Assembly (NCBI GenBank): GCA_020724885.1
Contig: DYGD01000004.1
Span: 2,239-61,279, forward strand
Source of the DNA: Candidatus Paceibacter sp.
Lineage (GTDB): Bacteria > Patescibacteriota > Minisyncoccia > Phycocordibacterales > BOKC01
Length of the DNA stretch: 59,041 nucleotides
Direction of reading: 5' to 3'
In this document: in pieces, positions 55,806-58,749 of the stretch
Layout of the letters: each line of letters starts with the position of its first letter
Position numbering within the stretch: the stretch's first letter is position 1
Position numbers and translations under genes: made by a program
Notes under the pieces: generated by a model
What the model was told of the DNA's origin: nothing
Databases searched by the model: none
Seen by the model: the letters and a program-made list of their open reading frames with translations, nothing else

Positions 55806-58749
55806 CGGGGGTCAATACGATGTTCAATACTTTGCCTTTCACATAAATAACCTTTTTGATTTCTTTACCAACTATCCATTTTTGTACCGCCTCTTGAGAT
55901 AGTGCCATTTCTTTAATTTTCTCCTCGGATTCCTGCCCCTCTGCTTCCATTACCGCCCTGACTTTGCCGTTAATTTGGATAGCGATAGTTGTCATATTCC
56001 TCCCTATTTTCTTAGGGTTAAATTTTGGCCACTTTTCTTGGTGAATTGATGATTTTTTCTTTAAAACTGCTTGCCACAACTCTTCTGTCAGATGCGGCGC
56101 AAAAGGTGCAAGCAATATGAGCAGTGTTTCAAATTCTTTTTTAGATATTGTATTTTGCTTTGCCAAAGCATTTGTAAAAATCATGAGCGCGCTTACCGCG
56201 GTATTCATCTTTAAGCTTTGAATGTCTTCACCAACTTTTTTTATTGTCCGGTTGAATAAAATTTCATCTTTAACATTTTCTCCTTCTGTAACTTTTTCTC
56301 GCAATTTCCAAACCCTTTCCAAAAATCTTCTAACCCCGACAATACCGTCCGTTGACCAAGGATAATGTCCTGTTTCGTTGAAAGGTCCGATAAAAGATAG
56401 ATAAGTTCTAACCGTGTCGGCGCCGAGATTTCGGACAATTTCATCCGGGTCAACAACATTGCCTTTTGATTTGCTCATTTTGTTGCCGTCCGGCCCTAAA
56501 ATCAGCCCGCGATTCATCCGCATTTTGTATGGCTCTTTGTCTTTTACCAGACCAAGGTCATATAGAGCTTTCTGCCAAAATCTGGAATACAAAAGATGCA
56601 TCGTGTTGTGTTCGGCCCCGCCGGAATAGAAATCTACCGGCATCCAATCCTCCATTTTCTTTTTATCGGCAAATTCTTTTTTATTTTTCGGGTCGGTGTA
56701 GCGGAGAAAATACCAAGAAGAATCAACAAAAGTGTCTAAAGTGTCGGTTTCCCTTTCCGCCTTTCCTTTGCAATTCGGGCATTTAACGCTAACCCACTTT
56801 TCCGCTTTGGCGAGCGGCGACTTGCCGTCATTTCGTGGTAGGTAATCTTTTATTTCCGGTAATTTCACCGGCAAATCTTTGTCCGGCACAGGAACCTGTC
56901 CGCATTTTTCGCAGTGAATTATTGGAATCGGCACACCCCAGTATCTCTGCCGCGACACTCCCCAATCTCGGAGCTTGTAGGTGGTTTTTTTAGTGCCTCC
57001 GACGAACTTTATAATTTCATCTTTGGCTTTTTCTGAATCCAAATCGTTAAATTCAGAAGAATTTATAAGTTTTCCGTTCCCAGAAAAGACATATTTCCTA
57101 TTTTTTATATTTGCCACTATCTCTGGTAATTCTGAGATAGGCCAAAATGTTTTTTCTAAATCAGAAGTTGGTACCCAGTTTACAGTATGTTTTTCTGATT
57201 CTTCCTCGGACAATTTATCTTGTTCCAAATCTTCTAACTCTACTATAAAAACCTGGACATGCGCATCTCGGTTAATGTCTTTGTGTTCAGCGTAAAATTG
57301 AGATCGTATCTCCCAACCAAGTTTTTCAACTTTTCTAAAATTTTTAAATCCGGTTTCTTCCCGAACCTCTCTTATTACCGCTTCTTCAAATGATTCTCCT
57401 TCTTCTACCCCGCCTATTACCAGTGTTTTCCAGGGCATTTTTTTCCAGTGGATTTGTACTATTTCATCTTTTTCCGGGTGTTTAATTACAGCTTGGACGG
57501 CTTTTCTTGGGGACCATTTTTTTTCTTCTTTCGGTGGGTTGTCTTTATCTATAAAAAATGGAGCAATAACTTGCTTTATCGGCAAATTATATTTCTTGGC
57601 AAACTCAAGGTCCCTTTCATCATGAGCCGGCACAGCCATGATGGCGCCCGTACCGTATCCTGACAATACATAATCAGCAACAAAAATAGGAATTTCTTCT
57701 TTTGTGGCTGGGTTTATTGCTTTTATTCCCTTGAGTTCTACGCCGGTTTTTTCCCGATTTTCAGCAGTGCGTTCGATTTCAGTTTTCTTTTTTGATTGTT
57801 CGATATATCGAATGACTTCATCCCAGTTTGTAATTTGATGATTGTAATTTGGAATTTTCTCGTGCTCTGGCGAGAGAACGAGGTATGTTGCACCGAAAAT
57901 TGTATCCGGTCGCGTGGTAAAAACGGGAATTTGAGATTTGGAATTTGAGATTTGGAATTTTATTTCTGCTCCTTCTGATTTCCCTATCCAATTTCTCTGG
58001 CTCTCTTTTATCGGTTCCGGCCACTGCAATTCATCTAAATCATTTAAAAGTTGTTCGGCATAATCAGTAATTTTTAGATTCCACTGTAAAATATTTTTTT
58101 TCTCAACTTCGCTATCGCATCGTTCACACCGGCCACTTACGACTTGCTCGTTGGCGAGTACAGTTTTACAGCTCGGACACCAATTTGCCTGGGTTTCTTT
58201 TTGGTAAGCCAAGTTCTTTTTGAAAAGATGTAAAAACATCCATTGTGTCCAGCGATAATATTCTGGGTCGGCCGTGATAATCTTTCTGTCCCAGTCAAAA
58301 GACGCTCCCATGCTTCGGAGCTGATTCTCCATATATTTAATATTGTCATAAGTCCATTTTTTAGGATTAAGACCTCTCTTAATGGCCGCGTTTTCTGCCG
58401 GCAGGCCAAAGGCGTCAAAACCAATCGGAAACATGACATTCATTCCCCACATTCTTTTGTATCGGGCGAATATATCCGGCACCGAAAAAGCGTACCAGTG
58501 TCCAACGTGCAAATTACCGGAAGGATAAGGTATTTCCACCAAGGTGTAAAAATTTTGTTTACTTCTATTTTTATCGGCAGCTTTATAGATTTTTTTGTTT
58601 TCCCAATACCTTCTCCATTTTCTTTCAATAACTTTGTGATCATATTCTTTTTGCTTACCCCGTAAGAAACCCGCCTCCTTTTGGCGGTCAGCGGAAAGTT
58701 TCTTGTGGGGCCACTTTTTTTCTATTTTTTGATGGTTGTAGTTTTGCAT
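55789..58749 (-). CDS. leuS: leucyl-tRNA synthetase with an inserted Nudix domain
   Basis: HVGH (HIGH), CP1 editing motifs [12 protein letters not shown] and [15 protein letters not shown], KMSKS (NKMSKSKGN). Extra Nudix box [22 protein letters not shown] at aa 446-467. 986 aa. Confidence 0.95.
   Translation of the reverse strand: [986 protein letters not shown]

Follow-up and report, generated by a model that had tools for sequence, protein, structure and literature searches.

The locus described here raises the question of why a leucyl-tRNA synthetase (LeuRS) carries a second enzyme inside its own editing domain, whether host and guest are both intact, and what the guest would do there. 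The gene lies on the minus strand of a 59,041-nt stretch of DNA from Candidatus Paceibacter sp. (contig DYGD01000004.1, positions 2,239 to 61,279), the whole of which is termed the window, and the guest is a Nudix domain, termed the cassette. The cassette occupies a hairpin loop, naturally variable in length, that lies toward the C-terminal end of CP1, the editing domain, and the resulting architecture is a domain within a domain that is itself inserted. A first-pass annotation of the window had proposed a true in-frame insertion, and this is borne out by a single uninterrupted reading frame of 986 amino acids. The cassette is apparently a complete, independently folding and active Nudix pyrophosphohydrolase domain of ~150 amino acids.

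A Nudix domain nested in the CP1 editing domain

The features of the synthetase, all on the minus strand, are listed from the N to the C terminus of the protein.

55789..58749, minus strand: complete LeuRS open reading frame, 986 aa, stop codon included (open reading frame list, TIGR00396, 1H3N, full-length AlphaFold2 model)
58654..58749, minus strand: N-terminal 32-aa extension (aa 1-32), AlphaFold2 pLDDT ~40, probably unstructured
58498..58509, minus strand: HIGH motif of the synthetic site (HVGH, aa 81-84)
57562..57996, minus strand: CP1 editing domain, N-terminal three quarters (aa 252-396; PF13603)
57901-57918, minus strand: CP1 T-rich motif TTRPDT (aa 278-283)
57610-57654, minus strand: second CP1 editing motif (aa 366-380), containing PAHD (aa 374-377)
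57076..57561, minus strand: inserted Nudix cassette (aa 397-558), made up of an N-terminal linker, the Nudix fold (~aa 410-550) and a C-terminal linker
57346..57414, minus strand: Nudix box (aa 446-468), an exact GX5EX7REUXEEXGU
57268..57297, minus strand: X-loop motif (aa 485-494), with aromatics at +17/+18 from the box and the family signature [FY][YF]AxHKxxNR
57199..57201, minus strand: Glu517, candidate catalytic base or metal ligand, acidic, downstream of the box and near-invariant
56965..57075, minus strand: CP1 C-terminal remainder after the insert (aa 559-595, ending YKLRDW), from the alignment to 1H3N residues 377 onward
56467..56481, minus strand: KMSKS motif (aa 757-761)

The host scores 1012.1 bits against the TIGR00396 leuS_bact model, well above the curated equivalog cut-off of 548.4, shows full-length homology to the Thermus thermophilus LeuRS (PDB code 1H3N, E 8e-234) and is modeled by AlphaFold2 over its full length with a predicted local distance difference test score (pLDDT) of 89.3 and a predicted template modeling score (pTM) of 0.80. 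Residues H81, G83 and H84 of the HIGH motif, K757, M758, S759 and K760 of the KMSKS motif and the CP1 residues T278, T279, R280, T283, G366, G368, H376 and D377 are invariant among 77 homologues, and both zinc knuckles are present. As none of the motifs for synthesis or for CP1 editing is damaged, the gene product is, as judged from its sequence, a working bacterial-type LeuRS. The T. thermophilus enzyme and the Escherichia coli enzyme (PDB codes 3ZGZ and 4AQ7) have the same HIGH, KMSKS, zinc knuckles, T-rich region and editing aspartate, whereas the window protein differs from the former in having gained the ~145-residue Nudix domain between T. thermophilus residues 363 and 377 and in lacking T. 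thermophilus residues ~583-637. This second region of ~55 residues (583-637), which we take to be the leucine-specific domain, has no counterpart in the window LeuRS, where the gap falls near aa ~755-758 (56467-56490 region).

In the alignment to 1H3N, query residue 396 corresponds to T. thermophilus residue 363 and query residue 555 to residue 377, so that 158 residues stand where the T. thermophilus enzyme has 13, in agreement with the ~145 extra residues that had been counted in the first-pass annotation. The Pfam editing domain PF13603 is matched at aa 252-398 with 212.7 bits over profile positions 1-143 of 185 only, and in a fragment homologue, P0245 (homologues are designated by P numbers), profile positions 124-185 match C-terminal to the Nudix domain. 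The insert was correctly placed by the annotation after the CP1 editing motifs and before the NSxEF/YKLRDW segment; its extent had been given as 57100-57516, and the boundaries are set slightly wider here, at 57076-57561. The Pfam NUDIX profile PF00293 matches aa 430-536 with 52.5 bits (E 6.8e-14; gathering threshold 21.1), placing a Nudix match above threshold within a LeuRS of TIGR00396 level, and the Nudix box lies exactly at the coordinates first reported for it and follows the consensus without exception. Modeled alone from 54 homologous inserts, the cassette forms an independent Nudix fold with the expected order of strands and helices (pLDDT 95.2, pTM 0.88), and the same region has a pLDDT of 92-96 within the full-length model. 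A Foldseek search with the cassette returned 499 PDB matches at E<=0.001; all 50 of those listed are Nudix proteins, many at probability 1.0. A lineage-typical linker with no Nudix homology is excluded by the Pfam, AlphaFold2 and Foldseek results.

The catalytic residues are strongly conserved in 112 LeuRS homologues that carry the insert. Within the box, G446, E461 and E465 are found in all 112 sequences, G447, E464 and G467 in 111, R460 in 101 and E452 in 98 (glutamine in 10), and a strict Nudix box is kept in 94. Outside the box, R415 (107), K490 (104), N493 (104) and R494 (90) are conserved, as is an EExxxHxxxW segment containing E517 (111), H521 (96) and W525 (111), and the mean identity of the inserts is only ~36%. 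Since the catalytic residues are near-invariant in more than 100 orthologues and the inserts are otherwise ~36% identical, the pattern of conservation indicates that the Nudix module is under selection as an enzyme. The X-loop motif is the probable substrate-specificity element, the role of this loop in Nudix specificity being taken from a comprehensive review of the superfamily (PMC5389931).

The codon usage of the cassette sets it apart, with a G+C content at third codon positions (GC3) of 0.284 compared with a host-gene mean of 0.408 and a minimum of 0.315 in any host window. This lower GC3 is the only feature that would favor an artefact, such as a chimeric assembly join or a frameshifted neighboring gene, an explanation that is given almost no credence in view of the continuous reading frame, the recurrence of this architecture, junctions included, in over 100 assemblies made independently and the confident AlphaFold2 model of the full chain across both junctions. 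A search for flanking repeats, target-site duplications or mobile-element signatures at the cassette found only short AT-rich matches compatible with chance. Among these, short AT-rich inverted repeats loosely bracket the cassette at 57100-57109 and 57550-57559 (10 nt, perfect) and at 57080-57105 and 57682-57707 (26 nt, 81%), and these are probably fortuitous given the base composition of the DNA.

At the other end of the protein, the canonical LeuRS N-terminal motif is present twice, at aa 4-13 in the extension and again at aa 36-45, and the consensus N terminus of the homologues reads MxxYDHKxIEKKW. No in-frame ATG, GTG or TTG codon lies between the two copies, and the sequence AAGGAGG occurs inside the extension at ~58675-58683. 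The extension may be a small 5' duplication.

Spread of the cassette and its exchange between hosts

The distribution of the insert among LeuRS enzymes was assessed with the 120 best matches of a full-length search of a 5.8-billion-protein collection. The insert is present at the same position in 112 of the 120, drawn from NCBI, JGI, ENA and Logan assemblies, a count that is inflated, since a LeuRS with the insert gains match score from it. The spacing from AHD to DWxxSRQR is nearly constant at ~220 residues in the insert-bearing enzymes. The insert is widespread in related LeuRS, with named sources comprising Candidatus Kaiser-, Campbell-, Adler- and Giovannonibacteria and Paceibacterota, to which the loci of GTDB species representatives (insert in 26 of 80) add Nomura- and Staskawiczbacteria. 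The window and its relatives have in common the gene order YchF, LeuRS, a Sigma70_r4/HARE-HTH protein, DUF8128 and YceG. A few of the loci bear non-Patescibacteria labels, as given by their sources. A word-index search with the insert only was too insensitive, yielding four proteins and no full-length LeuRS; one of the four, P0001, could be a piece of a LeuRS, being 118 aa long and encoded on a contig of 584 nt.

When 1.84 billion cluster representatives were searched exhaustively with a profile of the insert, 185 clusters were matched at E<=1e-30 and 966 at E<=1e-10; the best 150 matches were parsed for domain architecture. By comparison the cassette is a member of one distinct Nudix subfamily acting as an accessory, exchangeable module. 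It occupies three LeuRS loops (the start of CP1, the end of CP1 and the ZN-2 loop) in one to three copies: P0125 and P0126 have a tandem pair at the CP1 start and one copy at the canonical site, P0134 has tandem copies at the canonical site, P0135 and P0139 have an additional copy in the ZN-2 loop region, and P0170 and P0127 have the cassette only at the CP1 start. The Nudix box is kept in most copies and is degenerate in some.

The subfamily extends beyond LeuRS. P0253 is an archaeal-type prolyl-tRNA synthetase (ProRS; PF00587, PF03129 and PF09180) with the cassette between its anticodon-binding and C-terminal domains (146 bits), where the Nudix box is one residue shorter and has a lysine for the arginine. 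Five ProRS clusters (P0253 and P0275-P0278), 61-74% identical, contain the cassette, and these hosts are, on the evidence of their sequence relatives, a small DPANN-archaeal clade; some of the Nudix-less relatives are named as Nano- or Woesearchaeota and most have no source name. Proteins of ~160-190 aa consisting of the cassette alone are also among the best 150 matches. Only P0002 (171 aa), which adjoins genes for uracil-DNA glycosylase, MurB and MurA, is confirmed as a free-standing cassette gene; a genome scan with another short entry, P0138, found only LeuRS-embedded copies, and some of the other short entries may therefore be partial sequences. Embedded and free-standing copies do not form separate groups, with P0002 being 52-56% identical to ZN-2-site copies and P0160 being 55% identical to the P0017 insert. 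Among the best 150 matches, every protein that is not free-standing and whose host is identifiable from a LeuRS match or from Pfam is a synthetase, either LeuRS or ProRS, and several matches of 230-470 aa (for example P0184, P0219, P0220 and P0259) show a Nudix domain only. A pattern scan of viral contigs gave no close relative of the cassette, the viral fold matches being generic Nudix proteins.

The same LeuRS loops also accept unrelated folds. An alpha/beta-hydrolase of ~180 aa stands at the CP1 start in 24 of the 120 closest LeuRS (for example P0008, P0010, P0013, P0019 and P0023) with its GHS[LF]G nucleophile elbow kept in 22 of the 24, and P0013 and P0023 carry this insert with no Nudix domain. 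A HAD-family phosphatase occupies the ZN-2 loop of P0119 (aa 637-791) besides the Nudix domain, and P0016 has a further insertion of ~130 aa at the ZN-2 loop.

The relationships among the cassettes do not follow those of the host LeuRS. Pairwise identities of host and insert are uncorrelated (Pearson r = 0.06, 6216 pairs), and inserts tend, if at all, to be more alike where the hosts are farthest apart. The hosts closest to the window protein (P0011, P0009, P0012, P0013, P0029 and P0023; 77-80%) all have no Nudix domain, the insert being absent in six of the 10 closest, and the closest hosts that do have one (P0007, P0006, P0008 and P0010; 72-78%) carry cassettes only 34-41% identical to that of the window, whose most similar cassettes (P0026, P0048, P0041 and P0053; 65-69%) come from hosts with no more than 55-57% identity. 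P0007 is the nearest host in 492 of 500 column bootstraps, and neither P0007 nor P0006 is among the five most frequent nearest inserts. P0017 and P0025 are 93% identical outside the block and 34% inside it with sharp breakpoints, after KKFNLPI and before GGExKTTYRMRDW, and with P0022 added, three hosts that are almost the same in sequence carry three cassettes unrelated to one another. Average-linkage grouping of the 112 hosts gives 28 cassette types (<45% identity) and 21 host groups in a many-to-many relationship, one host group of 42 containing 12 cassette types. When P0017 was used as the seed of a genome scan, the matches were mostly LeuRS of Firmicutes, none of them closely related to P0017 (identity 59% at most).

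Because the cassette relationships do not follow the host LeuRS, the comparison indicates that cassettes are repeatedly gained, lost and replaced, and the exchange would proceed by homologous recombination through the highly conserved flanks. Some of the evidence tempers this conclusion. The discordance is measured only at the level of identity matrices and bootstrapped nearest neighbors. The pair P0054/P0056 is 82-92% identical in DNA outside the block and 56-69% within it, the change coinciding with the block borders, with a synonymous divergence (dS) of 1.30 in the cassette compared with 0.76-0.89 in the host and a ratio of nonsynonymous to synonymous divergence (dN/dS) of ~0.29 compared with ~0.06; the pair alone can be explained by faster evolution with no exchange, since a contrast in dS cannot separate the two when the host dS is already ~0.8. 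Faster evolution cannot, on the identities given above, explain the discordant triplets.

In five of the Nudix-less close relatives (P0011, P0012, P0013, P0023 and P0029) the C-terminal remainder of CP1 is also largely gone, with 44 residues left compared with 76-113 in Nudix-less LeuRS, and in four of these PAHD is changed to PADD or PAND. Editing may be impaired in this lineage.

Predicted substrate and competing explanations

The cassette is tentatively assigned the hydrolysis of dinucleoside polyphosphates such as diadenosine tetraphosphate (Ap4A), or of RNA 5' ends bearing them (an RppH-like variant is included), a possibility that is given somewhat less than an even chance. The clearing of Ap4A had been put forward as speculation in the first-pass annotation, and it is still the most plausible function. 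Nudix enzymes hydrolyse compounds in which a nucleoside diphosphate is joined to some other group, and aminoacyl-tRNA synthetases are the classical source of Ap4A; an Ap4A-type substrate is preferred on account of this synthesis and of the capture of the cassette by two synthetases that are unrelated to each other. In the proposed scheme the cassette would hydrolyse a nucleoside-5'-polyphosphate compound close to the synthetase: the synthetase would make Ap4A when aminoacyl-AMP reacts with ATP, the Nudix domain would cleave it, a cell living on scavenged nucleotides would recover AMP/ATP, and the alarmone or cap would not accumulate. LeuRS itself would not need the module for aminoacylation or editing.

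The features of the cassette that are consistent with this assignment are centered on the X-loop and on fold comparison. A tyrosine ~17 residues downstream of the Nudix box has been linked to hydrolases of diadenosine polyphosphates (ApnA) (PMC5389931, summarizing Dunn 1999). The window cassette has F485 at +17 and Y486 at +18, the pair is FY, FF, YF or YY in 105 of the 112 members, and a tyrosine at either position is found in 78, the rest having phenylalanine. K490 and R494, conserved basic residues of the X-loop, could accommodate a chain of phosphates. Of the NCBIfam models, all matched far below cut-off, those for RppH are hit most consistently (47 and 43 of 54 members), followed by NudB, YtkD and NudE, and the top Foldseek matches include RppH, NudC/NUDT12 and the ApnA hydrolases 3I7U, 1VC8, 9CXX and 4MPO. 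The RppH/ApnA hydrolases (E. coli RppH 6VCK, Aquifex aq_158 3I7U and T. thermophilus Ndx1 1VC8; likewise Chlamydia CT771 4MPO and Mycobacterium tuberculosis Rv2985 9CXX) have the same fold, box and aromatic residue or tyrosine ~17 after the box, whereas the insert is only ~20% identical, has its own X-loop signature HKxxNR and is embedded rather than free-standing.

Other Nudix classes fit less well. The NAD(H) pyrophosphatase and NAD-cap decapping enzymes NudC/NUDT12 (PDB codes 7E44, 5IW4 and 6O3P) have the top Foldseek E-values, whereas the insert lacks their SQPWPFPxS motif and their N-terminal and zinc domains and matches the core fold only (TMt 0.33-0.40). Neither the NADH-type SQPWPFPxS motif nor a zinc-binding N-terminal domain is present in aa 397-558, where the NF001299 match covers the Nudix box only, and the ADP-ribose-type proline at +16 is replaced by Q484 in the window and by Glu, His or Lys in the family. 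The best solved relative by profile is the Enterococcus faecalis MutT/nudix protein 2AZW (43 bits, E 2.7e-10, end to end), which ranks second by fold (TM 0.69/0.76) at 21% identity; as a structural-genomics entry to which no substrate has been assigned, it allows no transfer of function.

Several observations count against a dinucleoside polyphosphate substrate. Only 78 of the 112 members have Tyr rather than Phe at +17/+18, the best RppH match reaches 29.1 bits against a cut-off of 118 with no subfamily model reaching its curated threshold, the fold matches are generic (TM 0.55-0.69 at ~20% identity), and 2AZW, the best relative with a solved structure, has no function assigned to it. The free-standing P0002 lies in an unrelated neighborhood, and the occupation of the same LeuRS loops by alpha/beta-hydrolase and HAD domains fits LeuRS as a tolerant carrier. 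The last two points lead to the main rival, in which the cassette is a passenger, a general house-cleaning Nudix enzyme with no link to leucylation, and LeuRS, being large, essential and constitutively expressed and having tolerant surface loops for assorted small hydrolases, is an insertion-tolerant carrier in the streamlined Patescibacteria. Absence of the cassette from six of the 10 closest hosts and a history independent of the host are also in its favor. However, the unrelated class II ProRS of another domain of life captured the same subfamily independently, LeuRS did so more than once, at three sites and with as many as three copies, and the bias toward synthetases among the identifiable hosts of the best 150 profile matches is hard to explain by tolerance alone; the passenger is regarded as doubtful, although a serious competitor. 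A domain directed at RNA, removing the 5' pyrophosphate or nucleotide caps (NAD or Np4A) from tRNA-Leu precursors or other RNAs, would account for the frequency of RppH and YtkD (BsRppH) models among the NCBIfam matches, for NudC, NUDT12 and RppH among the top Foldseek matches and for the basic K490 and R494, suited as these are to a phosphate chain. It is considered unlikely: all of those NCBIfam matches are far below the family cut-offs, the insert has no NudC zinc domain or SQPWPFPxS motif, the free-standing members have no RNA-binding appendage, and the 5' ends of mature tRNAs are made by RNase P and carry a monophosphate.

The turnover of the cassette would also fit a molecular conflict, in which the module protects the synthetase or the cell from a nucleotide-type toxin or signal (for example an aminoacyl-adenylate-mimicking antibiotic against LeuRS/ProRS, or an NAD/ADP-ribose-derived molecule) and the swapping is an arms race. 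At least 28 cassette types in a many-to-many relationship with 21 host groups among the 112 hosts, near-identical hosts with unrelated cassettes, the presence/absence polymorphism in the closest relatives and the higher dN/dS of the cassette (~0.29 compared with ~0.06) all point this way, and the NCBIfam family NF040702, an isoleucyl-tRNA synthetase (IleRS) with an embedded GNAT domain, would be a possible analogue of a built-in detoxifier. Yet no defense-island neighbors are present, the YchF-LeuRS-sigma-like-DUF8128-YceG synteny being one of housekeeping, the viral-contig pattern scan gave no close relative, dN/dS is below 1, and adenylate mimics are known to be detoxified by HIT, GNAT and peptidase enzymes but not by Nudix enzymes. 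That an exchanged cassette specifically colonizes the synthetases of ultra-small symbionts and acts in such conflict ("self-defending" synthetases) is quite unlikely, and the protective arms race as such is rated slightly lower still; in a wider form of the idea the loops of LeuRS would serve as docking sites at which hydrolase domains (Nudix, alpha/beta-hydrolase and HAD) can readily be swapped as cargo. The first-pass annotation had offered pre-transfer proofreading, the hydrolysis of misactivated aminoacyl-adenylates such as norvalyl-AMP (Nva-AMP) or isoleucyl-AMP (Ile-AMP), as a speculative function, and the physical embedding of the domain in the editing domain speaks for it. The chemistry does not, because Nudix enzymes cleave pyrophosphate linkages and the aminoacyl-adenylate linkage is an acyl-phosphate, not a diphosphate; adenylates are known to be hydrolysed by HIT proteins or by the synthetase itself. 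Conservation of the post-transfer site of CP1 is complete and leaves no editing gap to fill, the same cassette is found at the CP1 start, in the ZN-2 loop, after the ProRS anticodon-binding domain and as a free-standing protein, and the closest LeuRS relatives have no cassette, so that proofreading is judged very unlikely.

The preferred assignment to dinucleoside polyphosphates has a parallel in the mammalian LysRS-Ap4A-NUDT2 axis, a signaling pathway in which a synthetase makes Ap4A and a separate Nudix enzyme destroys it. The same pairing is proposed here, but both activities would be on one polypeptide. If the Nudix domain acts on synthetase-made dinucleoside polyphosphates, this natural fusion ties Ap4A production and removal to a single chain and would give an experimental handle on the long-debated question of whether Ap4A is a by-product to be cleared or a signal. 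By family name, NF040702 (isoleucine--tRNA ligase, N-acetyltransferase domain-containing) likewise joins a class I synthetase to a small-molecule-modifying domain, but with another synthetase (IleRS) and another inserted fold (GNAT).

Synthetases with added catalytic domains are characteristic of eukaryotes. The predicted third catalytic center described here is nested in a bacterial CP1 editing domain, an arrangement of which no earlier description was found in a full-text literature search; nor did that search find a paper describing a Nudix domain nested in LeuRS or in any other aminoacyl-tRNA synthetase. The combination of LeuRS and Nudix is visible in precomputed Pfam annotations of public proteins. 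The comprehensive Nudix review does not mention tRNA synthetases/ligases (PMC5389931), and a 2026 survey of domain insertions records the LeuRS editing domain only as an inserted module and never as a host (PMC13114784), whereas in the window protein it acts as a host. Both parent families are textbook cases, and it is the cassette behavior and the recurrence in ProRS that lift this one above a routine fusion. As the cassette does not have the history of its host, an essential, slowly evolving translation gene can harbor a fast-turnover, horizontally exchanged module, and this turnover matters for the use of LeuRS as a phylogenetic marker in Patescibacteria and for the understanding of genome streamlining in episymbionts. 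For protein engineering, the family offers three naturally validated insertion-tolerant LeuRS loops.

Other features of the window

Two further Nudix open reading frames that had been reported in the window (47398-47820 and 49388-49840) are real, both being matched by PF00293. The origin of the insert as a recent duplicate of either is rejected, with only the Nudix box in common and scores of 17.7 and 4.7 bits against the insert hidden Markov model compared with 160-205 bits for true members. The lower score, 4.7 bits, belongs to the gene at 47398-47862 (minus strand), whose product is outside the LeuRS-cassette subfamily and has an atypical, interrupted Nudix box, GGKMRWYEYLFWLLWGGYALALRREVGEEIG. 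This gene lies 54 nt upstream of a short alanyl-tRNA synthetase (AlaRS) gene at 45560-47344 (minus strand), making a second Nudix-synthetase adjacency in the window; the AlaRS is 594 aa long and comprises tRNA-synt_2c and tRNA_SAD with nothing after the SAD domain. The second free Nudix gene (49388-49840, minus strand) overlaps a uracil-DNA glycosylase gene (48783-49391, minus strand) by 4 nt. The free-standing cassette gene P0002 likewise adjoins a uracil-DNA glycosylase gene (region 200-1429 of locus L083), but the Nudix subfamilies differ (17.7 bits).

A 274-aa protein encoded at 51389-52213 (minus strand) combines an ATP-cone with an Mrr-type restriction-endonuclease domain, and two genes downstream, past an MgtC gene at 50873-51364, a PD-(D/E)XK/Cas4-like nuclease is encoded at 50075-50869 (minus strand). 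The sole RNA gene detected in the 59-kb window is a tRNA-Leu(CAA) at 4706-4791 (minus strand).

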